The translations under genes and the position numbers were made by a program. A stretch of DNA of 64,000 nucleotides from a virus. Shown here piece after piece: positions 28,796 through 63,962 of the stretch. Position 1 is the stretch's first letter. Each line of letters begins with the position of its first letter. Where the stretch lies: positions 1 through 64,000 of IMG/VR virus record IMGVR_UViG_3300028590_000015; one strand, 5' to 3'. The notes below the pieces were generated by a model, which was not told the DNA's origin, made no database searches, and was given only the letters and a program-made list of their open reading frames with translations.

Positions 28796-29292
28796 AGCTG
28801 TCCCCAATTTTGAGCCCCAAGGGCTTGCCCGTCTGGTCTGCAGGAGGTCGCCACGCATGGAAGGTGGGCGAGCACCGCGGCTTCGTGTGCAGCCTGGAGT
28901 GGGTGGGCAATGGGAGGCGCGCGCTGCCGTGCATGGTGATCTGGCCGGCCAGCAACGTGCTGGTGACGCGCGAGAGCCATGGCATGTGGGTGATCAGCCG
29001 GCGCGCCATCACCGAGTTCATCGGCTTCAACTCCGACCTCAAGTGCACCGGCTCGGTCAGCGAGCACTGCATGCGCGAGGCGCGTGAGTCGCTGGAGATC
29101 CTGGGCAAGGACAAGAACGACAAGCAAGCCCTGAACGCGCTGTGCGACGTGGTGCTGCGCTTCGCCCCTGACCTGGTGCACATGCCGGTCACCCCGTCGC
29201 ACGTCCGCAAGGAACTCGACAACCCACCCATGTGGACCGTGAAGGCCACCAACAAGGGCAGCGGCCAGGTGCTGTCCGAAACCGAGGTCTGA
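28792..29292 (+). CDS. Hypothetical protein (166 aa)
   Basis: ATGA-coupled to terL. Confidence 0.55.
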   Translation: MKLSPILSPKGLPVWSAGGRHAWKVGEHRGFVCSLEWVGNGRRALPCMVIWPASNVLVTRESHGMWVISRRAITEFIGFNSDLKCTGSVSEHCMREARESLEILGKDKNDKQALNALCDVVLRFAPDLVHMPVTPSHVRKELDNPPMWTVKATNKGSGQVLSETEV

Positions 29293-29294
29293 TC

Positions 29295-47765: not shown

Positions 47766-49790
47766 ATGACCGTTCTGGCCATCAAGGGATTCCGTGGCGC
47801 TGTGCCTCGGTACAGCTCACGCCTGCTGCAGCCCAACCAGGCGCAGCGGGCCTGGAACTGTCGCATCACATCCGGGCGCCTGGACCCGATCAAGGGTCCG
47901 GGCCTCGTCTTTTCTTCCACATTGGCGTCGGACATCCGCACCATGTATCGCTACCGCCACTTCGTTGGTGGAGCGCCGCTGGACAACTGGCTGATCTGGG
48001 CCTCCGATGTGGACGTGCAGCTTTCGCCGCTCGCCAACGACGAGCGAGGCGTTTTCTATTTCACATCCGAGACCTTCGAGCCTCGGGTGTCCTCCTACGC
48101 GCACGCGATCGCGGGCGCTGTCTATCCGAACGCATGGTTTGCGCTCGGGGTTCCCAGCCCGACGGTCGCACCAACTGTGACGCCGTCTGGAGGCACTGCC
48201 GCCGACGAGGAGCGCTCCTACGCCATCACCTTCGCTACTGCCTGGGGCGAAGAGTCGGGGCCGAGCCCGGCATCTGCGCTCGCCACCGGGAAGCCCGACG
48301 GCACATGGGCCCTCAGCAACCTGCAGACGGCACCGCCAAACGGCGGCGCCATCGTGGGCGCGGTGGCCGACAGCCCTGTGGATGGCCAGGTCACGGTGGA
48401 GCTGGATACCGTGTTCGGGCTGGCCGCCCACGAGTCCATCACCGTCAGTGGGGTGGGGGGCATGACCAGCCTGAACACTACGCATCGAATTCTGTCGATC
48501 AACGTGGCCACCAAGAAGGTGGTGGTGAAGCTCGATACGGCCCAGACCTACACCAGCGGTGGCGCCTGGGCTCGCGAGAGCCCGTTGAACACCACGGGCA
48601 TGGTGAAGCGGATCTACCGCACGGCTGGCACGAACCCGGCATTCCTGTTCGCGGCTGAGATCCCTGTCGCGGATACGACCTACAACGACACGGTGCCGGG
48701 CACGATGCTGGGTGAGGTGCTGCCCACCCTTCTGACGCTTCCGCCGCCGAAAAACCTCACCTGCCTGACGCGGCTGCCCAATGGGTGCATGGTCGGCCTG
48801 GCTGGCAATGAGCTGTGCCTGAGTGACCCATATCGTCCGTATTCCTGGCCCATCGGCAATCGCTACAGCTTTTCGGGGCGTGGAGTGGCGCTGTGCGTGG
48901 CTGGAACTTCGGTGATCGTGCTCACCGACAGCTACCCCATCCTTTTTACCGGGAGCGACCCCGAGGTTATGAGCCCGAGCACCATGGAGACTTATGCGCC
49001 GTGCGTGTCCAAGCGCGGCTCGGTCAACGTGGGCGGGGGCAGCATCTACCCCAGCTTCGACGGCCTTTGGCTGGCCACTCCGGCCGGTGTGAAGAAGCTG
49101 ACCCAGAACCTCTACCGCGACAAGGAGTGGGGCGAGCTCAACCCCGTCACGTTCGATGCGGCCTTTCACGACGGCCAGTATTACGCTCAGTACAGCGCCA
49201 ACGACGCGCGCGCACGCATCTGGGTGCTTGATGTGTCGGAGCCGGACAGCACGACCGAGATCGATGAGCAGGTTGGCGCGCTCTACCGGAACGAGTACGA
49301 CGGGCTGCTCTACGTCGCCAAGGGCGCCAAGGTGTTCCAGTGGGATGCCGACAACGGCATGCGCTACGAGTCGGACTGGATGAGCAGGGTGAACCAGTTG
49401 GCCAAGCCTACGACGTTCAACTGCGCCCAGGTGTTCGCTGATTTCAGCGACATCGTGCCGATCGACACAGCGCAGCAGGAGGCGAATGCAGCCTTGCAGC
49501 TCACGCCCATGATGGGCGGTGGGCAGATGGCCGGGCTGGAGATCGGGGTCGCCGAGGTCAATGGCTCGCTGCTGACCCCCATCGTGGTGCAGACCCAGCG
49601 CAAGGTGCAGTTCACCCTCTACCTCAAGGACGTGCCGATCTTCACGAAGTCGGTCACCAGCCAGAAGCCGTTTCGGCTGCCCACGGGGTACAAGGCCGAG
49701 CTGTTCGCAGTGCAGTTGTCGGCCTCGGTGCCCACCTACTCGGTGGCGATGGCAACCTCGATGGAGGAACTCAAGCAGGTGGCGCCATGA
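47766..49790 (+). CDS. Large virion structural protein (674 aa)
   Basis: Size, Thr/Ser/Gly-rich beta composition, SD GGGAG. Confidence 0.6.
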   Translation: MTVLAIKGFRGAVPRYSSRLLQPNQAQRAWNCRITSGRLDPIKGPGLVFSSTLASDIRTMYRYRHFVGGAPLDNWLIWASDVDVQLSPLANDERGVFYFTSETFEPRVSSYAHAIAGAVYPNAWFALGVPSPTVAPTVTPSGGTAADEERSYAITFATAWGEESGPSPASALATGKPDGTWALSNLQTAPPNGGAIVGAVADSPVDGQVTVELDTVFGLAAHESITVSGVGGMTSLNTTHRILSINVATKKVVVKLDTAQTYTSGGAWARESPLNTTGMVKRIYRTAGTNPAFLFAAEIPVADTTYNDTVPGTMLGEVLPTLLTLPPPKNLTCLTRLPNGCMVGLAGNELCLSDPYRPYSWPIGNRYSFSGRGVALCVAGTSVIVLTDSYPILFTGSDPEVMSPSTMETYAPCVSKRGSVNVGGGSIYPSFDGLWLATPAGVKKLTQNLYRDKEWGELNPVTFDAAFHDGQYYAQYSANDARARIWVLDVSEPDSTTEIDEQVGALYRNEYDGLLYVAKGAKVFQWDADNGMRYESDWMSRVNQLAKPTTFNCAQVFADFSDIVPIDTAQQEANAALQLTPMMGGGQMAGLEIGVAEVNGSLLTPIVVQTQRKVQFTLYLKDVPIFTKSVTSQKPFRLPTGYKAELFAVQLSASVPTYSVAMATSMEELKQVAP

Positions 49791-50658: not shown

Positions 50659-51450
50659 ATGTGCTCCGACGCACCAGACCAGAGCGGCGTGAACGCCGCA
50701 GCCATCGCGAACGCGGAGATCTCAAAGGAGGCGCTTGACTTCTACAAGCAGGTGTACGCGGAGCAAGCGCCAGCCCGAGCGGAAGCTGCCGCCGTGGCCA
50801 AAGAAGTCTCGCAGCGCCAGTTGGAGAGTTCCAAGCTCAACGACGAGATCAGCAAGGACTACTGGGACTACCAGAAAAACACGTTCCGGCCACTGGAAGA
50901 AGGCATCGTGGCGGAGGCTCAGGCCTATGACACGGCGGAGCGGCGCGAGGCCGAAGCGGGCACTGCAGTGGCCGATGTTGGAATGCAGGCCCAGGTGGCG
51001 CGCGATGCTCAGACTCGGCAACAGCAGCGCATGGGCGTGAATCCGAACAGCGGGGCTGCGGTCTCAATGCAGAACGTCTTGAGCATTGGAGACGCGGCTG
51101 CCAAGGCGGGAGCCGCTGGTGCAGCGCGCAAGAACGTGGAAACGGTTGGTCGTGCGATGAAGATGGACGCGGCCAGCCTGGGCCGCAATCTCGCATCGAG
51201 CCAAGCCACCAGCGCCAGCGTGGCGCTGAGTGCCGGCGACAGAGCGGTAGTCAACGCCAGCGCTCCACAACAACAAGCACAGAGCGCCGCGAGCATGATG
51301 GGGCAGGGGTTTCAAACCAGCATCAACGGCAACTCGTCGGCGGGGCAACTGTTTGGCCAAGCCGCCAATGCCCAGGCAGGCGCGGACGCGGCAAACGGCC
51401 AGGCTCTTGGCGGCTTGGCGGGCGCGGGCATGATGGCCGTGGCCATCTGA
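50659..51450 (+). CDS. Hypothetical virion/internal protein (263 aa), Ala/Gln-rich
   Basis: Low-complexity coiled-coil-like composition. Confidence 0.5.
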   Translation: MCSDAPDQSGVNAAAIANAEISKEALDFYKQVYAEQAPARAEAAAVAKEVSQRQLESSKLNDEISKDYWDYQKNTFRPLEEGIVAEAQAYDTAERREAEAGTAVADVGMQAQVARDAQTRQQQRMGVNPNSGAAVSMQNVLSIGDAAAKAGAAGAARKNVETVGRAMKMDAASLGRNLASSQATSASVALSAGDRAVVNASAPQQQAQSAASMMGQGFQTSINGNSSAGQLFGQAANAQAGADAANGQALGGLAGAGMMAVAI

Positions 51451-51461
51451 TCGGAGCCGCC

Positions 51462-52877
51462 ATGCAAAGCAGCTACGAGGTTTCGGTCAACGCAGCCACG
51501 CGCGCGGCAGTCGCGAGCGGCATTAACGTGCTCAACGCCTACCTGTTTGGCCAGACGGAGACGGAGCATGTCGCCCGGCTGCTCGACATGATGGACCCTC
51601 CGCCTGGCGCGGTGGTGATCGATGCAGGCTGCGGCGTCGGCGCGGTCGCCGAGGTCATGGCGCAGTTTCGGTCGGACCTACAGTTTGTCCTCGTGAACTC
51701 GAATGCCGAGCAGTTGGCGCGGTGTCCGGCCAGGATGCAGCAGCACCTGTGCAGTTTCGATCAGATGCCGCTCGACGACTGCAGCGCCGATGTGGTGATG
51801 TTCCATTTCTCGATCTGCCACGCGGAAAACTGGAGCGCGGCCGCGCGCGAGGCGTGGCGCGTGCTCAAACCCGGCGGCCTGCTGTTCATCAACGACATGC
51901 AGCGCATGCGCGGCGACAACACGCTTCTGGCCCACACGTTGAAGGCCTACGCGCACCCTGCTGGGGCCGTCGAAGAGGCCGCGCAGCGATGCGGTTTCGA
52001 GCTGGATGCGCTGATCGAGCCAGCACCCGTGGTGGAGCGACTGGCGCAGGCCCTCGATTCGCCTGCCTGGGCAACGGCGCTGCTGTCGGACGTGGCGCCG
52101 GCCGTGTGGCGCTTCACCAAGGCCGTGGCGGCCGGGCCCGTTGCATCAGCCTTCGCGCGCCATCGCCGCATCGGCTTCCAGTTCTCGGGCGGCCGTGACT
52201 CCACCGCGGCGCTGTACCTGCTGCGCCCTTACTGGGATCGCATGACGGTCTACCACCTGGACACCGGCGATCAGTTTCCTGAGACGCGGGCTGTGGTCGA
52301 GGCGGTCGAGCGCGATATGGGGAAACCCATGACGCGGATCGCCGGTGATGTGGAGGCGGTGCGCGAGCAATACGGGCTGGCCACTGACCTGCTGCCCGTC
52401 GACAACACCGCGCTGGGGCGCATGGTTTCCGGCAAGTCCGTGAAACTCATCAGCCGATTCGACTGCTGCTACCTGTCGCTCATGAAGCCAATGCAGGCCC
52501 GCATGGTTGCCGACGGCATCACCCTCGTGGTTCGTGGTCAGCGCGACGACGAGTACCACCAGCCGCCGCTGCGATCCGGCGATGGCGAGGGCGGCATTGA
52601 GGCGCTCTATCCCATTCAGGACTGGACGGGCGACGAAGTCTCGGCATACCTCGTGGCCCGAGGTCTTCCGCTCGCCCCGTTTTACGAGCGCGGCGCGCGC
52701 CGAGCGCCAGAGTGCATGGGGTGCACGGCCTGGTGGGACGAGGGCCGTGCCGCCTACCTGCGCAAATGGCATCCAGTCGCGTTCACCCAGTACCAGCAGC
52801 GCATGGGCGTCGTGAAGAACCAGATCCACCAGCAATACGCCGTCTTGATGGCGGCCGAAAAGGAGACCCAGCCATGA
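51462..52877 (+). CDS. Fusion protein: class-I SAM-dependent methyltransferase (N) + PAPS-reductase-family PP-loop ATP pyrophosphatase (C)
   Basis: N: VVIDAGCGVGAVAEVMAQ (motif I), LKPGGLLFIND. C: FQFSGGRDSTAALYLL (SGGxDS PP-loop) and C-terminal CMGC (CysH/DndC-like family). Confidence 0.75.
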   Translation: MQSSYEVSVNAATRAAVASGINVLNAYLFGQTETEHVARLLDMMDPPPGAVVIDAGCGVGAVAEVMAQFRSDLQFVLVNSNAEQLARCPARMQQHLCSFDQMPLDDCSADVVMFHFSICHAENWSAAAREAWRVLKPGGLLFINDMQRMRGDNTLLAHTLKAYAHPAGAVEEAAQRCGFELDALIEPAPVVERLAQALDSPAWATALLSDVAPAVWRFTKAVAAGPVASAFARHRRIGFQFSGGRDSTAALYLLRPYWDRMTVYHLDTGDQFPETRAVVEAVERDMGKPMTRIAGDVEAVREQYGLATDLLPVDNTALGRMVSGKSVKLISRFDCCYLSLMKPMQARMVADGITLVVRGQRDDEYHQPPLRSGDGEGGIEALYPIQDWTGDEVSAYLVARGLPLAPFYERGARRAPECMGCTAWWDEGRAAYLRKWHPVAFTQYQQRMGVVKNQIHQQYAVLMAAEKETQP

Positions 52878-54517
52878 GCAAAGGCGCAGCCATCGCAAAC
52901 GCGCTCGCACAGGGCATCAACGGCTATTTCCGGGGCATGAACTACACCCTGCAAATGCAGCGCGACGAGAAGGAATCGGAGTATCGCGACGAGCAGCGCG
53001 ATCGCCAGCGAAAGGACGATGCGAAGAAGGACAAGTTGGAAACCGACTTGGCCGACGCCGCCGCGCCGCGCACCACCATGCAGGGCACTGTCACCGAGAC
53101 CGCCGACAACAAGTTCCTGAATGCTGACTCGGCGCAGGCCGCCGCCATGCAGGACACGCTGGCAGCCGAAGCCGAGTTGAAGGGCGAATCGGCGCCCACC
53201 CAGCAGGCCGGCACCGGCGTGGTGGGCACGATGGCGCGCGGCAACGAGATCACGACCGGGCCGGTGGACACGTCCAAAGTCAACAGCTCCGATGCGCGCA
53301 ACGAGCGAGTGCTTGGCGCGCTGCGCAGCAACGGGCAGGTTGAACGCGCCATGAGCATGGAGAGCAACATCCTGGACCAGCAGGCCAAGCGCCTGGGCCT
53401 GGATGTGGCCCAGGCCAAGTTCGCTGACGAGCAGTTCAACCGTAAGCTCACCGAGCGCCTCTCCACGCCAAACTGGGGCGAGGAGGCGGCGAAGATGCTC
53501 GACGAGACCGAGGTGGGCAGTCTCGCTGGCGTGACCGTCACCTCGCGCCCGTCCAAGGACGGCAAGTCGATCGACCTCGTCGGGGTGCGCGACGGCAAGG
53601 AGAAGGTGGTAGGCACGTTTGAGAACAGCGATGCCGGACGCGCCAAGTTCATGCAACAGGTCGCACGCGTGCCGCTCGAAGCCAAGATCGGCTGGATCGT
53701 CGAGTCGGAGAAATCCGCGCGCGAGGAGCAGCGGTGGCAGCAAACCTTCGACTTCAACAAGAAGAAGGAGGAGAACGACCAGCAGTACCGCAACCGCGTG
53801 CTCAGCATCCAGATGGCCCAGGAATCGCGCGCGCGCCAGACGCACGCCCTGGCCATGGAGGACGCCAAGATCCCGCCTGCGGTAAAGCTGCAGGCGCAAA
53901 CGCTGGCCAAGCAAATGGAGACCATCAACTCCGCGCTGTCCAAGGCGATGGCCGAGGGTTCCTTCGACGCGAACAACCCCGCATCTGCGGACCTGATCAA
54001 GCAGCAGCGGGTGCTCGGCTTGAAGTACCAGAACCTGCTCACGCCATACACCCCCGGCGCGCAGAAGAACGCCGACCCTCTGGGACTGGGCGGTGGCGAG
54101 GCGCCGGCTGCTGGTGCGCCTGCTTCGACGCCCGCTGCCACCACCACGACCCAGCAGCCCTCTGCTCCGGTGCCACGCATGGGGATTGGCGGCGGAGCGA
54201 TGCCACCGGCGGCCGCGCCCGCTGCTGCGCCAGCGCCTGCGAAAGAAAAGCCGACCGTCGCCCAGGTGCTCGCAGGCCCCAGCGCCGATCCGACGCTCCT
54301 GGCCAGCGCGCAGCAGAAGGCCCAGGTGGTCGAGCAACTGGCCGGGCAGATCAAGGCCGCGCAGGCCGCCGTGGCCCAGACCGCTCGTGCGAACCCTGCA
54401 GGCGTCGGCCCGGCCATGCAGCAGGTGGCCGCCGCGCGTGCAGAACTCACGAAGGCCCTCGCGGGCATGAACGATCAGCAGGCCGCCCAGGTTCTGGCGG
54501 CTGTCGGACTCCAGTAA
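52874..54517 (+). CDS. Hypothetical virion/internal protein (547 aa)
   Basis: ATGA-coupled; charged coiled-coil N-terminal region, Ala/Pro-rich C-terminal region. Confidence 0.55.
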   Translation: MSKGAAIANALAQGINGYFRGMNYTLQMQRDEKESEYRDEQRDRQRKDDAKKDKLETDLADAAAPRTTMQGTVTETADNKFLNADSAQAAAMQDTLAAEAELKGESAPTQQAGTGVVGTMARGNEITTGPVDTSKVNSSDARNERVLGALRSNGQVERAMSMESNILDQQAKRLGLDVAQAKFADEQFNRKLTERLSTPNWGEEAAKMLDETEVGSLAGVTVTSRPSKDGKSIDLVGVRDGKEKVVGTFENSDAGRAKFMQQVARVPLEAKIGWIVESEKSAREEQRWQQTFDFNKKKEENDQQYRNRVLSIQMAQESRARQTHALAMEDAKIPPAVKLQAQTLAKQMETINSALSKAMAEGSFDANNPASADLIKQQRVLGLKYQNLLTPYTPGAQKNADPLGLGGGEAPAAGAPASTPAATTTTQQPSAPVPRMGIGGGAMPPAAAPAAAPAPAKEKPTVAQVLAGPSADPTLLASAQQKAQVVEQLAGQIKAAQAAVAQTARANPAGVGPAMQQVAAARAELTKALAGMNDQQAAQVLAAVGLQ

Positions 54518-54529
54518 TCGGACGCTCAC

Positions 54530-57500
54530 ATGAACCTCGAAGAAGCCCGCAAGCGCCTGCCCGAACTCGAAGGGCTGAGCGACCCCGCTGCGATCGATGT
54601 GATCCACGAGGTCTACTACCCGCAGATGGACAAGGCCAAGCTGGCGGGCAAGTTGGGCTACAAGGCCCCGCCGGCGCCCGCGCCAGAGCGCAGCACCATG
54701 CGCGCCGCAGGCGACTTAGCGCTGCAGTTCGGTGGTGGTGCCGTGTCTGGTGTGCGCATGATGTCCGACTTGCTGGGGGCGAACAACGCGGTGTCGGGCA
54801 CGCTGCGCAACGCCGAGGACGCCCTGCAGAAACTCCAGAGCGCGGCTGCGCAGGCCGACCAGCAGCAGATCGCCGCCATCATGAAAGAGGCCGAAAGCAA
54901 GGGCTTCGTGGACCAGGTGCTGGCGGGGGTCAAGGCATTCGGCGTGGCGCCTGCGGCAATGGTTGCTCAAGCCCTGGGCACTTCGCTGCCCACCCTGGCC
55001 ACAGCAGCCATTCCAGGCGCTGGGCCCATGGCACTGGCGGCGCGCCTTGGCGCGGCAGGTGCGGTGGGCGCAGGGCAGGGCGCGGGCAACATCAAGGGCG
55101 TCATCTACGACCAGGTGAAGGCAAACCCACTGCCGGGTGAGGCGCCCGAACAGACCGAGGCCCGCGCCGTGGACGCGCAGTCCTACACCGGAGAAAACGC
55201 CGATCAGATCGCGCTGGGCGGTGGCCTTGGCCTGCTCGCTGGTGCCACGGGTATGGAGCGGGCCGTCGGCGCTCTGCGAAACGGTGTCGCGAAGGCCGCG
55301 CCCGGCATGGCCGCGCGCGTGGGCCTCGGCGCCGCTGGCGAAGCCGTGCCGGAGGCCCTGCAGGGTGGCCAGGAGAAGCTGGCGGGCAACCTGGCGCTCG
55401 GCCGCGAGGGGTTCGATGTGGACCCCATGTCGGGCGTCGTGGCCGGCGGCACGATGGAGGCGCTGGCCGGCGGCGTAATGGGTGGCGCAACGGCGCTTCC
55501 TCGACCCGCAGTGCGCACGCCCGACCCGATTTCCCAGGCCGGCGACGCCATTCGATCGGCTGAGGTGGTGCCGGAGTCGGGCCCGATGACCCGCGCGGCC
55601 AACGTGGCCACCGAGATGAAGGCGCAGCAAGCTGAGGCCGACGTCGCTGCGCAGGTGGCCGCGATCGAGCCTGCCGAACCTGCGCCGGTGCCAGCACAGC
55701 CAGTGGCCGACGATCCGGTGGCGCAGCCCGTCGCCGCTGTCTCGCCGGTTGAAGCCGCGCCGGTGGACGCCTCGGACGCTGCCCAAGAGCAGCGGGCCAA
55801 CAACGCGCTGGCCAGCATGGAGCGCCAGGCGCAACGCGACATGCAGAGCATGCGCGATTTCAGCCGGACCACGCCTGCCACCAGCGATGTGCCCGATCCG
55901 TTCGCCGACGTGCCGGTGGCCGGCGGTGCGCCCGCGGCTGCCGCGTCGGGGGATGTCCTGAATCCCAAGGGCGAGCCTTTCAAGACCAGGATGGCTGCGC
56001 AACGTGCCACCAAGAAGACCCCTGGCGATGTCGTGCCCGTCGCGGGCGGCTTCGTCGTTCGCCCAACCATCTCCCAGGATCTCGCCAGTGAGCCCACCCA
56101 AGGAACCCCAGATGCAGCCGCTGTCGCGCCGTTTGACGCGGGCGCAGCGCCGGCAGTGGAGCCCGGTGCCGGGCCCGATGCGGGAGAAGCTGGCGCTGCA
56201 GCGCTTGTTCGACCGGCCGAGCCCGAGCAGCCTGCGGCACTGATCGCGCAGGCCCCTGCCATGCCTGCCGCTGAAAGCGACTGGCAGGTCTTCCCAGCCG
56301 ACACCGAGACGCTCAACGTGCCGCGCGCCGAGATGCCGCAGATCAAGGCCGCGCACCGCGGCGCGATGGTCAATTTCCTCAAGGCCCGAGGTATTGAGCA
56401 CGAGGCCGACGAGGTGGCGGCCAACACGCTCAAGCCCACCCAGGCCGAGTTTTCAATCTCCAAGGTGAAGAAGGCCCAGGACTTCGGCGACCCCGATCGT
56501 TCCATCCTGGTGTCGGCCGACGGCTACGTGGTCGATGGCCACCACCAGTGGATTGCGCGCGGAGCCAACGGCGCCAGCGTCAAGGTGATCCGCCTCAAGG
56601 CTCCGATCTCCGAGCTGCTGCCCGCGGTGCGCGAGTTTCCCAGCTCCACCGTCGATGAAACGACAGCCGATGTCCAGAACGCAACGCAAGAGCCCGCAGG
56701 GGAAGCGGCCCAAGCCGCGAACACTGAAACGACAGCGCCAGCGGGAAGCGATGGAGCCGCCACCGAAGGAGTTTCCCCAGAGGGAAGTTCCCCCGTGGAA
56801 GCCGCTGGGGTGAAGGATGGGGCAGCGCCCGAGTCGGACGCCGCCCACCCCCCGCAGGCGGATGCGTCGCCTCCTCAACAAACCGGCCAGGCTCCTGAGC
56901 CCGAACCCGAGCAGCGCACGCCGGAAAAGGTGGTGGCGCGGCGTAAGCGCCTGATCGCTGAACGCAAGGCCTCCGAGATTGCCTCACCAGCCCAAGAAGC
57001 AACGAAGGAGGCGCCTGCAACGGAGGCGCCCGCCCCATCGAAGCCGAAGGCGAAGCGGCAGACGGCGGCCTCGCGCCAGGCGGAAGCAGAGGCCGCGCGC
57101 GCCGGCTATTTCACCCCTGGTCACGTGGTGCGCGGTTACGGTGGCTTCGATGAGGTGTTGGCGTACAACCCAACAGACGGCGGCGGGTTCAGCGTGACCG
57201 TGCATGAGGTGAAGCGCGTGGGAGACGAATGGCACCGCGTCGGCAAGCCGCAGGACGCGCGCACGCACAGCACGCAGCCCGAGGACCGGCTGCTCAAGAA
57301 CGGCCCATTCGCGCGCCTGTCCTACCGTCGCGCTGGCGAGGTGGTCTACACCAGCCCGCGCGCTGATGGCCAGCCGTTCCCGAATGCCGTTGATCGAGGT
57401 GTCGCGCCGCCTGCGGAGAAGGTCGCCGAGCCTGATCCAGCACCAGCCCCGAAGGCTGAACGAGCGGCCGCTCCAAAGAGCGCCGCACCGGTCAAGATCG

Positions 57501-60500
57501 AGGACTTCGGCGAGAAGCTCGCCGGCGCGCGCAAGGACTACGCCGCGCAGCTCAAGGACGCCGAGGCCCTGGACGTGTCCGCTGTGCCGCTGTCGCAGTC
57601 GTGGCCCGAGCCGGACTACCAGAAGCTGCTGGAGGGCGGCGCCGATCCATTCACCGTGGCGTTCATTCACGCTGCGCGCGATGAGGTGCCGAACAAGCCG
57701 CAGACGGCTTGGAAGCTCAAGGGATGGGTGCCGATGGTGAATGCGCTTCGCGGCATGTCGCACATGCTGCTGGCGGGCCGTGCCACGAGGCAGTCCTTGA
57801 CGGACATGCTCAGCCGCGCCGACATGCGCAGCGTGCGCGATGGAGTCGCCAGCCGCGCCGAGCTTTACGAGGCTGTGGGGCACGACCGGTCGCTTAAAGG
57901 CCTGTCGTTCGCTGAGCACCACTACTCGCTCTACAAGGGCCAGCCGAACGTGCGGAAATGGGTTGTCTCGCAGCGCTCGAAGTCCACTGCTTTCGGCAAC
58001 TGGCCCCGCGAGCTGGCCGTCGGCGATACCAAGGCGGCCATGCTGGAGCAGTTCACGGCGAAGCTGGTTGCTCAGGACATCAATGGTGTCAGCGCCAAAG
58101 CCAAGCCCAGTTTCGTGATCTACGGCAAGCGCGGCCAGAAGGGCGCGTTCATCGGGAAGAAGATCGGGCGCGAGTACATCGACCTGCACAAGGCCGACGA
58201 CGTCGTCGCCGCGCGACGCTACATGGCCGAGAACACGGCCGCGCTGGAGAAGGCGCTGGAGCGATACAAAGAAACCCCGTTCGAGCGGAAGTCGGAGAAT
58301 GCCCCCCGTGTTGGTGGCGACCACCGCAATGGCGCGCCGGTGACGCCCGAGGTTTTTGGCGACACCTTCGGTTTCCGTGGCGTGCAGTTCGGCAACTACG
58401 TGGAGCAGGGTCGGCGTCAGTCGGACCTCAACGAGGCGTTTGACGCCCTGATGGACATGGCCGCCGTGCTCGACCTGCCGCCGCGGGCACTCTCGCTCAA
58501 CGGGCGGCTGGGGTTGGCCTTCGGCGCGCGTGGCAAGGGCGGGAAGAACGCCCCAGTCGCGCACTATGAGCCCAGCAGCGTGGTGATCAACCTCACCAAG
58601 GGCGGCGGGCCCGGCAGCTTGGCGCACGAGTGGTTCCACGCCATGGACAACTATTTCGCCAAGGAGGGCGGGGATATCGGGTTCATGACCGACGCAGCAC
58701 GCGGCGACGCGCTGCGCGCGGAGATGCGCGAGGCGTTCATGGTCATCAAGCGCGCGATGAACCAGGGCGAACTCAAGAAGCGTTCGCTGGAGCTGGACAA
58801 GCGCCGCTCGAAACCGTACTGGTCCACATCGCTGGAGATGGCAGCAAGGTCGTTTGAGAGCTACGTGATCGCGAAACTCTACGACCAGGGCGCGGCCAAC
58901 GACTACTTGGCCAACGTGGTCAGCCCGGAATACTGGGCGGCCGAAGAGGCGATGCGCGAGGTGTTCGAGGGCAAGAAGGCCGGGCCGACCTTTCCCTACC
59001 CCACGGTGGACGAGATGCCGGCGTTGCGCGCAGCGTTCGACGACTTTTTCAAGGTGGTCCAAACCCGCAAAGATGACGATGGCAAGGTGGCCATGTTCAG
59101 TCGCGCGGAAGGGGCGCCGAAGGGCATCAGCCCGGCCCAGGCGTCGAGCATCGTCAGCGCGCTCAGCAAGCGTTGGGCGAACGCACCCGAGGTGGTGGTT
59201 GTTTCCAGCATCCAGGACGAAGCGGTCCCGGTCGAGGTCCGCGAGCATGACCTTGAGCAACGAAGCCTTGGCGCCAGTGGCGAGCCGGAAGGATTCTGGT
59301 ACGACGGCAAAGCCTACGTGGTGGCTGGCGCGCTGAATGGCCCTGCGGACGTGGTGCGCGTGCTATTCCACGAGGCGCTCGGCCACTACGGCCTGCGTGG
59401 CACGTTCGGCGAAGGTCTGACCCCCATCCTGAAGCAGTTGATCGCCATGCGGCGGCCCGCCGTCGAAGCGAAGGCAGCGCAGTACGGCCTGCAGATGAGC
59501 AACGAAGAGCACCGGATGCAGGCCGCCGAGGAAGTGCTGGCCGAGATGGCTCAAAGCCGTCCAGGGCTCGGCTTCGTGAAGCGCGCGATCGCAGCCGTTC
59601 GCGCGTGGCTGCGCACGCACGTGCCCGGGTTTGCGAGCATGAAGCTCACCGACACGGACATCATTTCCCAGTTCATCCTGCCCGCGCGCCGGTTTGTCGA
59701 GAATGGCGCTGCGCGCCAGCAGGGGGGCGTCGAACCCGCCATGGCGTTCAGCAAAGCCGAGCGCAATGCCCTGGACGAGATCAGCCGCATGGACGAGATG
59801 TTCGCCGTGCCGAAGTCCAACCAGTTGACCCTGGAGGGCATCTTTGCTGACCTGGCGCCGCAGATCCAGGTGAAGCGCGGGCATGCCATGGGCACGCAGA
59901 CCACCTACCGGCTCACGTTGCCAATCGCGAACAAGGGCGATGGGTTGATCACGGCCACGGTGACGGTGCGAGAGCCGAACCCCTATGGCGCGAGTGTCTA
60001 TGGGGTGGAGTTCGACGCCGAGAACGAGATCATGGAGGCCTCTACGGTGCGCCCGGGGGAAAACCCAGCGGACCTGTCGCCGGACATGGCGGATGTGTGG
60101 ATCGATGTCTCCAGCCTGCCCCAGGGGTCCGGCTTGGGCGAGATCATCTACAGTGCGGCCGCCAATTTCGCGCACAACACCGGGCGGGTGTTCATCGGCG
60201 ACCCTAACGGGTTGAGCGCTGTCGCGCTGCGCCGCCGCACTGAGCAGATGATCTCCAGCGCATTGAAGTTCGGCACGACCGACCACCTCGCGCCCCATCC
60301 CGACCAGGTGAAAGGTGACACCGCCGCCGGCGTGCCGGCGCTGCGGTGGGTCTATGGTGACTCGGAGGGCAACATCGAGCGCATGATTGACGTGAGCCTC
60401 CAGTCCATCGAAAATGCCCTTCCTTCCGCGAAACTCATCGGGTATGACGCTGCCAGCAACAAGTTCTTCCGCATCGACACCGGCGCTCGCTTGCCTTTCC

Positions 60501-63500
60501 GATCGGCAATTGCTGGCGTGGTCAATGCGCAGAGTTTGGGCAGGGCTATCGACGGGCGACGACCTGATGGCCTGGGCCGAGCAGCCGACCGAGCAGGACA
60601 AGGCGTGGATGCTGGAGCAGCAAGCGCGGGATCAGCGGGTTGGCGTACTGTTGCGCGAGCTGCACTATTTCGGTACCTCCGAGAGGCCCAGGGCGTGGCG
60701 GCCGACGGAGCAGACCGAGGAAGCCTTCTGGACCGATTGCGCGATGCGGGCGCCCGGCTTGGACGAGAAGGCCCAGTTGCAAGCGGTGGCGCGTCTGCGG
60801 AACCCATCTTCTACAGCCGTAGCGCGGGCAACAGCAACGGCCTGAGCGCCGAGACGGGGGCGCGTTTCAGCCGCTCCCTCACCGAATCGATCAACAACGT
60901 CCGCAGCATGGCGCTGCCGGCCGGCTACGTCGTCAACGACCTGTTCCAGTCCACCGGCAAGCTGTCGTGGTGGAACAAGACGGTGGGCACGATGTACAAC
61001 CTCGCGCAGCGCGAGCGCGACTTCAAACCGGTGTTCGACAAGGCGCAGGAGTTTCTGAACGACGTGGCGTTCTACGCCGCCGAGGCCTCCAACCTGGCGC
61101 CCAAGATCTTGCCCAAGCTGGAAACGCTCAAGGACATCACGAAGTCGCCCATTTCGGCCGCCGACAATAAGGCCATTTCCGCGCCCATCTTTGAAGGGAC
61201 GCTCACATGGATGCGCGACCCCTCGACGCGCAAGCCCATCACCATGGAAGAGGCCGAGGCGAAGGCCGCCAGCATGACCACCGAGCAGAAAGCCGGTGAG
61301 CTGGTGCGTAAGGGCATGCTCGCGCCCGAGGTGCTCAAGATGTGGCAGGGTCAGCCGGTGGATCAGTACACGGCCATGGTGTCCGACCGGTACGAGCGGG
61401 ACATGCTGAACGCCGGCATCGTCTGGACCGACGCCGAACTCAAGGGGCAGTTCAAGCTGAGCGATGACCAGGTGGCGCTCTACCGCGAGTTTCGGGCGGC
61501 AGTGGACAAGAGCCTCTCCACCCTGGCGATCGCCGATATGGTGCGCTTCGGTGGCCAGGACGTGCAGCCGGTGCGCGAGCTGGCGCTGGAAGCCGAAAGC
61601 GTGGATGCCGCGGCGAAACTGTTGCGGGACTTCCTGCTCGCTGAGGCCGAGGCGGACCCGGCGCGCAAGCGCGTCCTGACCGACACCGCCGACCGCATGC
61701 TGGACAAAGCGGCGAAGGCGAACAGCCTGATGGAGCGCGGCTACGCGCCCCTGTCGCGATTTGGGCGGTACTCGCTGGACGTGGTGGATGCCGGCGGCGA
61801 GCGCGTGTACTTCGGGCTGTTCGAGTCCCAGGCCCAGGCCAACAAGATGGCGCGCCAGATGCGCGGCAACTTCCCCAAGGCCTCGATCACCCAGGGCACG
61901 GTGAGCCAGGAGGCCTACAAGATGTTCGCCGGCGTGTCGCCTGAGACTCTGGAGCTGTTCGGCCAACTGGTTGGCCTGGAGGCGAAGGGCGATGGTGCAC
62001 TGAACGAGGTGTTCCAGCAGTACCTCAAGAACGCGAAGAGCCAGCGCAGTGCGATGAAGCGCCTGATCCAGCGCAAGGGCATCTCCGGTTTCAGCGAAGA
62101 CCCGGGCCGCGTGCTGGCCGGCTTCGTCTACTCGAATGCCCGGCAGACTTCGAGCAGCCTGCACATGGGCGAGCTGGCCACTGCCGTCGACGAGATCCCG
62201 AAGACCAAGGGCGAGCTCAAGGACATGGCGGTCAAGCTCAACGACTATGTGAAGAACCCCCAGGAGGAGGCGCAGGCGCTGCGCGGTCTGCTGTTTGCCC
62301 AGTACCTGGGCGGCTCGGTGTCGTCGGCGCTGCTCAACGCCCTGCAGCCGGTGCAGGTCACCTTTCCGTGGCTTTCGCAGTTCGGGGGCGGCATCAAGGC
62401 TGCCAGCCGCATGAAGCGCGCCATCAGCGACGTGCTCGCTCGCCGCGAACTGGAGCCGACCCTGGCCAAGGCCTTGAAGAAGGCCGAGGAAGACGGCGTG
62501 GTGAGCCCGCAGGAGGTGTTCCAGCTCCAGGCCCAGGCCGCAGGTCGCGCACCGCTGCTGACGAGCGATGGCACCCGCCTAGGCGCCGCCGGCGCGGCCG
62601 CCAACAACACGCTGTCGCGTGTCACGCTGGCCTGGGGCAAGCTGTTCGGCGCGGCCGAGCAGTTCAACCGCCGCTCGACCTACATCGCGGCGTATCGCAC
62701 GGCGGTGGAGCAGGGCATGGGCGACCCGGCCAAGTTTGCCGAGCGCGCGGTTTACGAGACCCAGTTCGTCTACTCCAAGGCCAACCGGCCGCAGTGGGCC
62801 CGCGGTGCCGTCGGCGCGACCCTCTTCACCTTCAAGCAGTACAGCATCAGCTACGTGGAGCTGATGCACCGCATGTACACCCAGGGCGGCCCCGAGGGCA
62901 AGAAGGCCGCGCTGCTGGGCATCGCGGTGCTGTTCCTGATGTCCGGGCTGGGTGGGCTGCCCTTCAACGACGATCTGGAGGATCTGATCGACGGCTTCAT
63001 GCAACGGGTGATGAACCGCAACTTCAACACCAAGCAGGCGAAACGGGAGTTTTTCACCAACCTGCTGGGCGCCAATTTGGCCAACTTCCTGGAGCGCGGA
63101 GTTTCCGGGCTGCCGGGCGCGCCCATCGACGTGTCGGGCCGGCTTGGGCTGGGCAACCTCATTCCTGGCACCGGCGTGTTTCAGAAGAAGGACGATTACA
63201 GCCGCGACCTGCTGGAGATCGTCGGCCCGGCCGGAGACTTCGCGAAGCGCGGTGGCCAGGCTGCCGGCAAGGCGCTGCAGGGCGAGGTGCTGGGCGCTCG
63301 CGGCGCGTTGGCCACCGTTTCGCCTGTGGCCTCGCGCAACGCCATCAAGGGCTGGGAGATGGCCACCACCGGCATGTACCTGGATGACCGAGGCCGCAAG
63401 GTGCTCGACTCGAGCGGCATGGATGCCCTGTTCAAGTCCATCGGCATCCAGCCAGCCGGCGTAGCCCAGGTGCAGGAATCGGTGTTCGAGGTGCAGCGCC

Positions 63501-63772
63501 AGATCTCGCTCAACAAGATGCGCGAGACCGAGATCGCGAACAAGTGGGCCATGGGGGTGTTCCGCAAGGACTCCGACCTCGTCCGTGAGGCGCGGAGTGA
63601 GCTGGCCGCCTGGAACCGCGACAATCCCAGCACACCCATCGTGATAAAGATGCCTCAGATCCTCAAGCGCGTGCGCCAGATGAACCTCAACAAGGCCGAT
63701 CGCATCGCCAAGACCGCGCCCACCGAGATTCGGAGCCAGGTGCGCGATGCGCTGCGCGAGGCTCAGCGATGA
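54530..63772 (+). CDS. Giant (3080 aa) polyvalent virion protein: Ala/Gly/Pro-rich N-terminal region, ParB-like nuclease domain, two HExxH zincin-like motifs, long C-terminal region with a TM-like segment
   Basis: ParB motif at about 56290-56600 (LKPTQAEF...ILVSADGYVVDGHHQWIARG); HEWFH at 58625-58639; HEALGH at 59369-59386; uninterrupted 9.2-kb ORF with uniform codon usage. Confidence 0.85.
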   Translation: MNLEEARKRLPELEGLSDPAAIDVIHEVYYPQMDKAKLAGKLGYKAPPAPAPERSTMRAAGDLALQFGGGAVSGVRMMSDLLGANNAVSGTLRNAEDALQKLQSAAAQADQQQIAAIMKEAESKGFVDQVLAGVKAFGVAPAAMVAQALGTSLPTLATAAIPGAGPMALAARLGAAGAVGAGQGAGNIKGVIYDQVKANPLPGEAPEQTEARAVDAQSYTGENADQIALGGGLGLLAGATGMERAVGALRNGVAKAAPGMAARVGLGAAGEAVPEALQGGQEKLAGNLALGREGFDVDPMSGVVAGGTMEALAGGVMGGATALPRPAVRTPDPISQAGDAIRSAEVVPESGPMTRAANVATEMKAQQAEADVAAQVAAIEPAEPAPVPAQPVADDPVAQPVAAVSPVEAAPVDASDAAQEQRANNALASMERQAQRDMQSMRDFSRTTPATSDVPDPFADVPVAGGAPAAAASGDVLNPKGEPFKTRMAAQRATKKTPGDVVPVAGGFVVRPTISQDLASEPTQGTPDAAAVAPFDAGAAPAVEPGAGPDAGEAGAAALVRPAEPEQPAALIAQAPAMPAAESDWQVFPADTETLNVPRAEMPQIKAAHRGAMVNFLKARGIEHEADEVAANTLKPTQAEFSISKVKKAQDFGDPDRSILVSADGYVVDGHHQWIARGANGASVKVIRLKAPISELLPAVREFPSSTVDETTADVQNATQEPAGEAAQAANTETTAPAGSDGAATEGVSPEGSSPVEAAGVKDGAAPESDAAHPPQADASPPQQTGQAPEPEPEQRTPEKVVARRKRLIAERKASEIASPAQEATKEAPATEAPAPSKPKAKRQTAASRQAEAEAARAGYFTPGHVVRGYGGFDEVLAYNPTDGGGFSVTVHEVKRVGDEWHRVGKPQDARTHSTQPEDRLLKNGPFARLSYRRAGEVVYTSPRADGQPFPNAVDRGVAPPAEKVAEPDPAPAPKAERAAAPKSAAPVKIEDFGEKLAGARKDYAAQLKDAEALDVSAVPLSQSWPEPDYQKLLEGGADPFTVAFIHAARDEVPNKPQTAWKLKGWVPMVNALRGMSHMLLAGRATRQSLTDMLSRADMRSVRDGVASRAELYEAVGHDRSLKGLSFAEHHYSLYKGQPNVRKWVVSQRSKSTAFGNWPRELAVGDTKAAMLEQFTAKLVAQDINGVSAKAKPSFVIYGKRGQKGAFIGKKIGREYIDLHKADDVVAARRYMAENTAALEKALERYKETPFERKSENAPRVGGDHRNGAPVTPEVFGDTFGFRGVQFGNYVEQGRRQSDLNEAFDALMDMAAVLDLPPRALSLNGRLGLAFGARGKGGKNAPVAHYEPSSVVINLTKGGGPGSLAHEWFHAMDNYFAKEGGDIGFMTDAARGDALRAEMREAFMVIKRAMNQGELKKRSLELDKRRSKPYWSTSLEMAARSFESYVIAKLYDQGAANDYLANVVSPEYWAAEEAMREVFEGKKAGPTFPYPTVDEMPALRAAFDDFFKVVQTRKDDDGKVAMFSRAEGAPKGISPAQASSIVSALSKRWANAPEVVVVSSIQDEAVPVEVREHDLEQRSLGASGEPEGFWYDGKAYVVAGALNGPADVVRVLFHEALGHYGLRGTFGEGLTPILKQLIAMRRPAVEAKAAQYGLQMSNEEHRMQAAEEVLAEMAQSRPGLGFVKRAIAAVRAWLRTHVPGFASMKLTDTDIISQFILPARRFVENGAARQQGGVEPAMAFSKAERNALDEISRMDEMFAVPKSNQLTLEGIFADLAPQIQVKRGHAMGTQTTYRLTLPIANKGDGLITATVTVREPNPYGASVYGVEFDAENEIMEASTVRPGENPADLSPDMADVWIDVSSLPQGSGLGEIIYSAAANFAHNTGRVFIGDPNGLSAVALRRRTEQMISSALKFGTTDHLAPHPDQVKGDTAAGVPALRWVYGDSEGNIERMIDVSLQSIENALPSAKLIGYDAASNKFFRIDTGARLPFRSAIAGVVNAQSLGRAIDGRRPDGLGRAADRAGQGVDAGAASAGSAGWRTVARAALFRYLREAQGVAADGADRGSLLDRLRDAGARLGREGPVASGGASAEPIFYSRSAGNSNGLSAETGARFSRSLTESINNVRSMALPAGYVVNDLFQSTGKLSWWNKTVGTMYNLAQRERDFKPVFDKAQEFLNDVAFYAAEASNLAPKILPKLETLKDITKSPISAADNKAISAPIFEGTLTWMRDPSTRKPITMEEAEAKAASMTTEQKAGELVRKGMLAPEVLKMWQGQPVDQYTAMVSDRYERDMLNAGIVWTDAELKGQFKLSDDQVALYREFRAAVDKSLSTLAIADMVRFGGQDVQPVRELALEAESVDAAAKLLRDFLLAEAEADPARKRVLTDTADRMLDKAAKANSLMERGYAPLSRFGRYSLDVVDAGGERVYFGLFESQAQANKMARQMRGNFPKASITQGTVSQEAYKMFAGVSPETLELFGQLVGLEAKGDGALNEVFQQYLKNAKSQRSAMKRLIQRKGISGFSEDPGRVLAGFVYSNARQTSSSLHMGELATAVDEIPKTKGELKDMAVKLNDYVKNPQEEAQALRGLLFAQYLGGSVSSALLNALQPVQVTFPWLSQFGGGIKAASRMKRAISDVLARRELEPTLAKALKKAEEDGVVSPQEVFQLQAQAAGRAPLLTSDGTRLGAAGAAANNTLSRVTLAWGKLFGAAEQFNRRSTYIAAYRTAVEQGMGDPAKFAERAVYETQFVYSKANRPQWARGAVGATLFTFKQYSISYVELMHRMYTQGGPEGKKAALLGIAVLFLMSGLGGLPFNDDLEDLIDGFMQRVMNRNFNTKQAKREFFTNLLGANLANFLERGVSGLPGAPIDVSGRLGLGNLIPGTGVFQKKDDYSRDLLEIVGPAGDFAKRGGQAAGKALQGEVLGARGALATVSPVASRNAIKGWEMATTGMYLDDRGRKVLDSSGMDALFKSIGIQPAGVAQVQESVFEVQRQISLNKMRETEIANKWAMGVFRKDSDLVREARSELAAWNRDNPSTPIVIKMPQILKRVRQMNLNKADRIAKTAPTEIRSQVRDALREAQR

Positions 63773-63882
63773 ACTGGCCGGGGGTCTTTGTTGTGCTGGG
63801 GCTGCTGGTGCTCGCCGGTGTCACGTGGCCCTACGGCATCGTGATCGTCATCGGCCTCGTGCTGCTGCTACTGCGCGGATAG
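63769..63882 (+). CDS. Small membrane protein (37 aa), below the ORF-track length cutoff
   Basis: MNWPGVFVVLGLLVLAGVTWPYGIVIVIGLVLLLLRG; ATGA overlap with the giant gene stop; high third-position GC. Confidence 0.4.
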   Translation: MNWPGVFVVLGLLVLAGVTWPYGIVIVIGLVLLLLRG

Positions 63883-63962
63883 GGCGGCTTGGCGGGGCCG
63901 ATCCAGCAGCACAAAAGAAAACGGCGCCTAGTTGGCGCCGTGCTCAATTTCAAAGATAAGAA

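Follow-up and report, generated by a model that had tools for sequence, protein, structure and literature searches.

The locus and its reading frame

A giant gene encoding a protein of 3080 amino acids (aa) lies at positions 54530-63772, on the plus strand, of a 64,000-nucleotide stretch of viral DNA (IMG/VR record IMGVR_UViG_3300028590_000015, positions 1 to 64,000), the whole of which is referred to below as the window. The gene consists of a single open reading frame (ORF) running from ATG to TGA. In agreement with an earlier note on this DNA, it comes last among the large genes of the structural operon. The prophage that carries it has a P22-type portal gene upstream (29232-31553, Pfam E 3e-122), and its upstream structural genes also include fibre-like proteins. 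The giant gene lies at the right end of this prophage, since host genes (RNase R, GATase, YggT, rpsB and tsf) follow just downstream in the source contig. Judging by its domains, the product is a phage large polyvalent protein, as the earlier note had proposed: LPD5, LPD1 and LPD37 all score above their Pfam cut-offs, and several unrelated globular domains (the LPDs, a ParB/sulfiredoxin-fold domain and a CLCA_X domain) are joined in one polypeptide whose gene lies among the late or virion genes of a phage or prophage.

A very long ORF with low-complexity linkers could be an artefact, either of faulty assembly or of read-through that fuses several separate genes; the counterpart region of phage F116 is divided into two genes, p59 and p60, and one metagenomic relative (L003) is split into three ORFs. 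However, mis-assembly is excluded because an identical protein (P0015) is known from two sources, namely ENA and JGI, on contigs of up to 89.7 kb, and because a 92%-identical relative (P0016) is encoded by an equally uninterrupted ORF of 3083 aa on an independent Logan contig (L005 10001-19249), the length differences between the two genes being in-frame indels only, of 3 and 6 codons. Furthermore, the G+C content at third codon positions remains high in one frame from end to end (0.74-0.92), and more than 200 relatives of 2400-5200 aa share the overall modular layout. For practical purposes, the fused or mis-assembled gene is refuted.

Comparison with the 92% relative gave an overall ratio of nonsynonymous to synonymous substitution rates (dN/dS) of 0.125, with values of 0.03-0.27 for the individual modules and 0.5-1.3 for two linkers. 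Every module of the protein is under purifying selection, and the linker at aa 1990-2090, with a dN/dS of 1.26, appears to be fast-evolving. Synonymous divergence (dS) itself is a mosaic, with 0.05 over aa 1-705, 0.45-0.73 over aa 860-1990 and 0.32-0.39 in the C-terminal module. Because dS ranges about tenfold along the gene, recent intragenic recombination is indicated.

A C-terminal module of the probable internal virion protein D type

The C-terminal module (aa 2115-3080; 60872-63769, plus strand) is almost all-helical. The NCBIfam model NF032893 ('tail-700'), which describes PLxRFG proteins, matches aa 2404-3066 with 649 bits against a cut-off of 100, placing the protein in the PLxRFG family. 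In the signature PLSRFG (aa 2407-2412), P, R, F and G are invariant in alignments A2 and A3, and L is invariant in A3 and nearly so in A2. The PHROG families covering the protein are all of 'unknown function' (phrog_2859 over the ParB-like region, phrog_616 and others over the middle, phrog_11358 and phrog_21376 over the last ~990 aa).

Over ~980 aa, the module is 53-55% identical to F116 p60 and H66 gp60, the latter (3787 aa) being annotated as a part of the virion verified by mass spectrometry (MS). Hardies et al. assigned F116 p60, H66 gp60 and VT2-Sakai orf71 to an extended family of T7 gp16 (internal virion protein D, hereafter IVP-D) by comparison of hidden Markov models (HMM-HMM E 8e-19), drew a parallel with N4 gp50, an IVP-D homologue carrying an enzyme that needs the cytoplasm, and noted that the phages concerned have either IVP-D or P22 gp16, never both (PMC4819975). 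In keeping with an IVP-D, the protein studied here is large and, in the modelled part, mostly helical, and its gene follows a phrog_511 internal virion protein gene (47766-49790) and virion structural genes.

The structure of aa 2090-3080 was predicted with AlphaFold (AF2) from A3, rebuilt from A2, which was too large for this purpose. The model is almost wholly helical (mean predicted local distance difference test, pLDDT, 76; predicted template modelling score 0.68), with a pLDDT below 50 in its first 48 residues (aa 2090-2137). It contains the strongest hydrophobic segment of the whole protein (aa 2794-2812, hydropathy 2.03). The earlier note had located a hydrophobic segment near the C-terminal third; the sequence it pointed to, GIAVLFLMSGLGGLPF, is present at aa 2797, but this is at 91% of the length and inside the ejection module. 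In BFVD, the model matched 62 predicted viral structures at E<=1e-3, mostly terminal chunks of other giant polyvalent proteins, and these include two proteins annotated 'Internal virion protein D', from the Roseobacter phages CRP-4 (2.9e-10) and CRP-5 (1.4e-7), as well as a protein of the Vibrio phage ICP2. The module has a dN/dS of 0.03-0.09 and is the most strongly conserved part of the protein. The assignment of the C-terminal ~970 aa as an IVP-D (T7 gp16-like) ejection module thus appears well supported, if indirectly, by sequence families and predicted structures.

We consider it probable (roughly 0.7) that the gene encodes the IVP-D-type ejection protein of the prophage, a counterpart of T7 gp16, of the C-terminal part of N4 gp50 and of H66 gp60, enlarged into a carrier of polyvalent cargo. 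The earlier note had described a bundle of counter-defence enzymes and had missed the PLxRFG/IVP-D module. As a whole account this description falls short: with such a module in its C-terminal third the protein is probably a structural ejection protein with cargo and not only a counter-defence bundle. A stricter form of the same idea holds that the protein is a purely cytoplasmic bundle of counter-defence or host-takeover enzymes, comparable to DarB, in which the C-terminus is just a packaging signal and has no role in ejection. Polyvalent proteins were indeed described as conflict effectors acting in the early phase (PMC5512222), DarB-like annotations occur among the relatives, the homologous C-terminal region of N4 gp50 is required for encapsidation, and no solved ejectosome structure was matched. 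However, a helical module of ~970 aa with a strong hydrophobic segment, showing the strongest conservation in the protein (dN/dS down to 0.03) and having orthologues homologous to T7 IVP-D in phages that carry either this protein or P22 gp16 but never both, speaks against a mere packaging signal. In addition, the Pfam scan detected none of the methyltransferase or helicase domains of P1 DarB, although many relatives have them, and PADLOC returned no match. A purely enzymatic role is hence considered unlikely.

A constant frame with exchangeable cassettes

A database search retrieved more than 200 relatives of 2400-5200 aa, and modules were mapped on the best 120. Among these, the C-terminal module was found in 106 proteins, the N-terminal module in 63, the HExxxH domain in 60, CLCA_X in 33, the ParB-like domain in 28 and LPD37 in 23. 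Other relatives carry, in the middle, SNF2 helicases, N6-adenine methylases, ART, MuF-C, RadC, lysozyme/SLT or ddrB-ParB domains. As read from these alignments, the N- and C-terminal modules constitute a constant frame, between which cassettes are swapped. The exact combination present in the window is common only to two very close relatives, P0016 and P0017, as cassette shuffling within the family would lead one to expect.

Three groups of known proteins were compared with the window protein. The PLxRFG protein of the Hollowayviruses (H66 gp60, F116 p59+p60) is likewise encoded by giant late genes in podoviruses with a P22-type portal. Its cargo in H66 differs, comprising an S-adenosylmethionine (SAM) methyltransferase, LPD23 and LPD3 in place of the ParB/sulfiredoxin-like, LPD5, CLCA_X, LPD1, HExxxH and LPD37 domains of the window protein, and the giant gene is followed by lysis genes in H66, whereas it is followed by the prophage end in the window. 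The 3372-aa 'methyltransferase' of Shewanella phage vB_SbaS_Y11 (WIF21962.1) is 38% identical over 68% of a 2500-aa query (aa 581-3080) and shares the Gly/Ala-rich N-terminal module, a ParB-superfamily domain near aa 700, LPD5, a HEWFHALD zincin, LPD1, an HExxxH domain (HELGGH) and the PLxRFG module; it differs in having ddrB-ParB (PF18763) instead of the DGHHQ-type domain and ART-PolyVal instead of LPD37. Finally, T7 gp16 and the C-terminal domain of N4 gp50 represent large helical ejection proteins that host enzymes (SLT in gp16, an RNA polymerase and a metallopeptidase in gp50). The window protein gave no direct sequence or structure match to either of them, lacks a transglycosylase and is 2.3 times as long as gp16.

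A ParB/sulfiredoxin-fold domain with an invariant glutamine

A domain with the alpha+beta fold of the ParB/sulfiredoxin superfamily occupies aa 585-705 (56282-56644, plus strand) and carries the invariant motifs PRxxMPQ, LKPTQAE and DGHHQ, with KPTQ at aa 635 and DGHHQW at aa 669. The earlier note had placed a ParB-like nuclease here. The fold is found where it was expected, but none of the ParB-family HMMs (PF02195, PF08857, PF18763) gave a significant match, the best being ParBc_2 with E 0.24, below the cut-off, and profile searches of the PDB with the ParB profiles A1 and A5 returned nothing significant. Moreover, the conserved Arg of the superfamily (G-x-x-R) is replaced by Gln in all 28 giant homologues, DGHHR being found in just one distant small homologue (P0013), which leaves the nuclease reading putative. 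Compared with characterized members of the superfamily (pNOB8 ParB-N, SbnI, SerK, sulfiredoxin, PadC, KorB and Atu1540), in which the Arg of GxxR binds phosphate, the window domain has an invariant Gln at this position and is accompanied by neither a ParA partner nor a helix-turn-helix or dimerisation domain.

An identity with the DdrB-like ParB family (PF18763) was rejected, as no match appeared even at E<=5 on the corresponding tile, and hhalign of A1 against the ddrB-ParB region of Y11 gave a probability of 0.03. The profile search for the domain retrieved 5045 cluster representatives at E<=1e-3. Nearly all of the best matches are giant proteins in which the domain is located at ~aa 500-1300. 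The DGHHQ-type domain is therefore a very abundant one, in which Gln stands at the position of the catalytic or phosphate-binding Arg and which has no Pfam or other database model.

Small, apparently stand-alone homologues of this domain (P0001-P0014) were considered as a separate family and set aside as fragments, since they come mostly from short contigs or frameshifted giant genes. In L003 (4962-13179), for example, the domain is found in a 266-aa ORF between a 1680-aa Kinase-PolyVal ORF and a 798-aa ORF, with overlapping ends, and the three ORFs probably represent one giant gene broken by frameshifts. A gene of the Acb2/Tad1-hairpin (anti-CBASS) type is located upstream of this broken gene (L003 637-1077).

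Two metallopeptidase-like domains

The first putative metallopeptidase, a zincin-like domain of the CLCA_X type, spans aa ~1280-1421 (58367-58792, plus strand), with HEWFHAMD at aa 1366-1373 and the His of an AHYEP motif upstream. Its HEWFH lies within LAHEWFHAMDNYF. In alignment A6, H112, E113, H116 and D119 are invariant, as is the upstream His of AHYEP. A variant with a His at the end of strand 2 and an Asp three residues after HExxH was described for polyvalent proteins (PMC5512222), and the HEWFHAMD region matches both this variant and the CLCA_X family at the sequence level. CLCA_X was linked to the CLCA_N zincin proteases by HHalign (Lenart et al. 2013; PMC3650047). The NCBIfam CLCA_X model NF041907 matches aa 1260-1462, which share its HExxH...D active-site pattern, with E 3.8e-37 and 128 bits; the score falls short of the cut-off set for whole proteins (260), since the model covers proteins of ~250 aa that stand alone. 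CLCA_X proteins are found mainly in phages and plasmids, often in proteins of more than 1000 aa, and one of the seeds of the family, Bbp10 of Bordetella phage BPP-1, is itself a listed IVP-D homologue. No protease activity is reported for any CLCA_X member in the cited papers. When the profile of this domain was compared with the PDB, the best matches were astacins aligned on the HExxH helix, at a non-significant E of ~1.

The second putative metallopeptidase covers aa 1525-1745 (59102-59764, plus strand), with HEALGH at aa 1614-1619, within VLFHEALGHYGLRG, and an AAEEVLAEMAQ helix downstream. The earlier note had counted two HExxH motifs, both zincin-like. The first of these is confirmed at aa 1366 and belongs to a recognised zincin-like family, whereas HEALGH reads H-E-x-x-x-H, leaving one HExxH in the protein, and no HMM ties the HExxxH region to zincins. 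Indeed, neither Pfam nor PDB sequence searches nor hhalign linked this region to any zincin. The residues H90, E91, H95 and E143/E144 are nearly invariant in alignment A4, and HExxxH is kept in 34 out of 35 further homologues beyond the 120 on which the domain was counted. An HExxxH metallopeptidase class was described for polyvalent proteins (PMC5512222), and it is on this description that the putative assignment of aa 1525-1745 relies.

These deviations raise the question of whether the enzyme-like cassettes are degenerate passengers, with the ParB-like and HExxxH domains acting as dead spacers or binding modules in a protein that is only an ejection scaffold. Such a view would account for DGHHQ in place of the canonical DGxxR, for the departure of HExxxH from the spacing of HExxH and for the lack of ParB or peptidase matches among Pfam models. 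It is difficult to reconcile, however, with motifs that are invariant or nearly so across divergent homologues, with a dN/dS of 0.06-0.16 in these domains and with the thousands of cluster representatives of the ParB-like family. Such conservation indicates a selected activity, not necessarily that of a nuclease or protease, and inert cassettes are considered quite improbable.

A short motif at module junctions

A motif of the form x-(F/Y/M)-S-(R/K)-(S/G/T/A) recurs in otherwise unconserved linkers at the junctions between modules. In the window protein, F-S-R is found at aa 1523-1525 (59096-59104, plus strand), at the boundary between LPD1 and the HExxxH domain, and further copies are present at aa 444, at aa 1740 between the HExxxH domain and LPD37, and, immediately ahead of the C-terminal module, at aa 2095 and 2113 in a stretch that is disordered in the model. 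In total, seven copies were observed where shuffling predicts 1.8. Among the homologues, the motif lay no more than 10 residues from where the HExxxH domain begins in 37 out of 60 proteins, near its end in ~34 out of 60, and just before the C-terminal module in 47 out of 79, compared with a background rate of 6% in random 76-aa windows. It tracks the junctions even where the order of modules is altered, as in P0017.

The motif is associated with the HExxxH domain in particular. It precedes the C-terminal module in 41 of the 47 proteins that have this domain and in 16 of the 51 that do not (Fisher p 1.4e-8, phylogenetic relatedness ignored), and in 24 out of 25 proteins whose HExxxH domain lies more than 150 aa upstream. 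No such association was detected with the CLCA_X domain (p 0.6).

A tentative explanation is that the F-S-R motifs are self-processing sites of the putative HExxxH peptidase. Cleavage at these sites would yield fragments of approximately aa 1-445, 446-1524, 1525-1741, 1742-2114 and 2115-3080, and the cargo units could be freed after ejection or during maturation. An explanation that we hold to be just as possible is that the motif is not cleaved at all, and either serves in docking or recognition, with the portal, the core or a chaperone as partner, or arises as a by-product where cassettes are joined by recombination. Its occurrence before the C-terminal module in proteins lacking an HExxxH domain, the loss of significance in an independent set and the frequent recombination suggested by the tenfold dS range along the gene are all consistent with this. 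On the other hand, the motif sits in disordered linkers with little other conservation, flanks the HExxxH domain on both sides and is retained before the C-terminal module even when that domain is far away; moreover, a recombination joint would not be expected to keep a three-residue peptide motif.

The processing idea can be extended to a joint and equally speculative proposal, in which the motif is the cleavage code of the HExxxH enzyme, making the protein a self-processing polyprotein, and the DGHHQ domain is among the most widely delivered early effectors of phages, with a chemistry unlike that of canonical ParB nucleases or CTPases.

Proposed function

The mechanism proposed for the ejection protein and its cargo draws on homologues and on published work (PMC4819975, PMC5512222, PMC8954989). 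The protein would be packaged in the capsid by means of its IVP-D module, as suggested by the homology to a virion protein found by MS, and would be ejected at infection ahead of or together with the DNA. The IVP-D module would then join a trans-envelope conduit, while the N-proximal cargo would reach the cytoplasm and, during the first minutes after infection, target host proteins as well as nucleic acid, either the host's or that entering the cell. The metallopeptidase domains may split the polyprotein into its working units, for which the x-F-S-R-S/G junctions are the most likely sites. Delivery into the host along with the DNA would be in line with the polyvalent class, and a counter-defence role of the cargo is suggested by the literature on that class.

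Several observations weigh against this account. The T7 gp16 N-terminus is periplasmic, which makes a passage of the N-proximal cargo to the cytoplasm harder to explain. Packaging, ejection and cleavage of the 3080-aa protein are each inferred by analogy with its homologues. The link to IVP-D is indirect because it relies on a published HMM-HMM comparison for the orthologues and on predicted structures annotated by their depositors, and Foldseek comparison of the C-terminal model with solved structures, including that of T7 gp16, gave only E>0.5. As for the cargo, the ParB-like domain may not be a nuclease, since the conserved Arg of the superfamily is lacking. Pfam scans of all members of both metallopeptidase alignments identified no peptidase family, neither region matched a solved zincin significantly in PDB profile searches, and hhalign detected no relation between the two. 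Finally, a smaller independent set gave no significant association of the junction motif with the HExxxH domain (6/9 vs 6/11, p 0.67), and the tests of association ignore phylogenetic relatedness.

The protein typifies a class that was described in 2016-2017, namely IVP-D-type ejection proteins with polyvalent cargo, and both ideas have already been published. In common with the polyvalent proteins of Iyer, Burroughs, Anand, de Souza and Aravind (2017; PMC5512222), it has three LPD domains defined in that work, a putative metallopeptidase of the HExxH + Asp type, a second putative one of the HExxxH type, a ParB-superfamily domain and a late-gene context near virion proteins. It differs in that its ParB-like domain is not of the DdrB-like family, and neither the IVP-D nature of the C-terminus nor a motif resembling F-S-R is mentioned in that paper. 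The gene does not alter the picture of how phages work. Giant ejection proteins nevertheless take up 14-19% of a podovirus genome, are almost untouched experimentally and probably bring ready-made enzymes into the cell along with the DNA. What is new here is the F-S-R junction motif, which possibly defines where such polyproteins are cut and is relevant to hundreds or thousands of phages; the DGHHQ domain of the ParB/sulfiredoxin fold is a second feature of similarly wide relevance.

Other modules of the protein

The N-terminal part had been described in the earlier note as low-complexity and rich in Ala, Gly and Pro. The first ~600 aa do contain 33-49% Ala+Gly+Pro, but they are not merely of low complexity, as they include a conserved Gly/Ala-rich module at aa ~1-335 (54530-55534, plus strand), recognised by phmmer, alignments and hydropathy. 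It was matched by phmmer at E<1e-5 in the 63 relatives counted above and has a specific consensus at ~aa 50-330 in alignments A2 and A3, with a dN/dS of 0.27. Residues 130-171 are moderately hydrophobic (hydropathy peaks of 1.2-1.5), and the module may take part in ejection or in membrane interaction. It is followed by a variable Ala/Pro-rich linker (aa 336-584; 55535-56281, plus strand), defined by its composition and by poor conservation in A2 and A3, which carries the FSR copy at aa 444.

Downstream of the ParB-like domain, a conserved region at aa 860-1135 (57107-57934, plus strand) includes the motif DFGEKLAGARKDY, is found in 24 of the 120 homologues and corresponds to phrog_616; it has a dN/dS of 0.12 and no Pfam match. 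The LPD5 domain comes next (aa 1139-1279; 57944-58366, plus strand; PF18799, E 9.6e-33, 114 bits against a cut-off of 27) and is listed as potentially enzymatic (PMC5512222). LPD1 (aa 1422-1513; 58793-59068, plus strand; PF18796, E 2.9e-18) separates the two metallopeptidase-like domains, and LPD37 (aa ~1765-1995; 59822-60514, plus strand; PF18853, E 3.6e-52) has a dN/dS of 0.07. Between LPD37 and the C-terminal module, a disordered linker rich in Gly, Ala and Arg (aa 1996-2114; 60515-60871, plus strand) largely coincides with the fast-evolving stretch of dN/dS 1.26 and contains YSR at aa 2095 and FSR at aa 2113. A PDB sequence search with the whole protein returned nothing significant.

Neighbouring genes and prophage boundary

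Upstream of the giant gene, a phrog_8003 virion structural protein gene (50659-51450) is followed by a gene encoding a methyltransferase-PAPS-reductase fusion of 471 aa (51462-52877; Methyltransf_11 and PAPS_reduct). The earlier note had seen a pairing between this fusion and the giant gene, which is not upheld: one gene, encoding 547 aa, intervenes, and the fusion is absent from the loci of relatives L005 (the 92% relative), L008 and L009, as well as from L003. In L005, L008 and L009, an internal virion protein is followed by small genes, then by a Peptidase_S74 protein, one of 500-567 aa and finally the giant protein. The stretch 50659-52877 of the window, with the phrog_8003 and fusion genes, thus corresponds in position to a lone Peptidase_S74 gene, of the fibre chaperone type, in these three relatives (L005 7275-8357). 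From the gene orders, this is a local cassette replacement, and the fusion gene looks like a locus-specific insertion. A ParB + PAPS-reductase pair of the Dnd or Ibr type (DndB/DndC, IbrB/IbrA) was likewise rejected, since the PAPS-reductase gene lies one gene away and the relatives lack it.

Searches of Pfam, PHROG and PADLOC gave no match for the intervening gene (52874-54517, plus strand), which is also called in L006. A gene encoding 500-567 aa directly precedes the giant gene in all four loci (window/L006, L005, L008 and L009), and this conserved partner may encode a second ejection protein, similar to internal virion protein C.

At the DNA level, the phage or prophage is new as far as these comparisons reach. 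No near-identical DNA was found in phage and plasmid collections, the sole match being 1.1 kb at 72% to a Pseudomonas Hollowayvirus, with no plasmid match. Megablast of the structural region (27000-51900) yielded zero matches among 50,697 phage records. The first 26,000 nucleotides of the window (1-26000) have short matches only, of 75-81% DNA identity, to phages of Burkholderia, Gordonia, Xanthomonas and Mycobacterium.

A 37-aa hydrophobic ORF, MNWPGVFVVLGLLVLAGVTWPYGIVIVIGLVLLLLRG (63769-63882, plus strand), overlaps the stop codon of the giant gene (ATGA). It has two hydrophobic segments, is called in L005 and L006 as well, and could be a small membrane protein, holin-like or exclusion-like. 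Further downstream, the interval that separates the end of the prophage from the RNase R gene of the host contains a GC-rich hairpin of 8 bp (63921-63941; ACGGCGCC...GGCGCCGT), whose T-run is present on the minus strand only. This hairpin, possibly part of the host side or of the attachment region, was rejected as the terminator of the late operon, as a terminator score was obtained for the minus strand alone.

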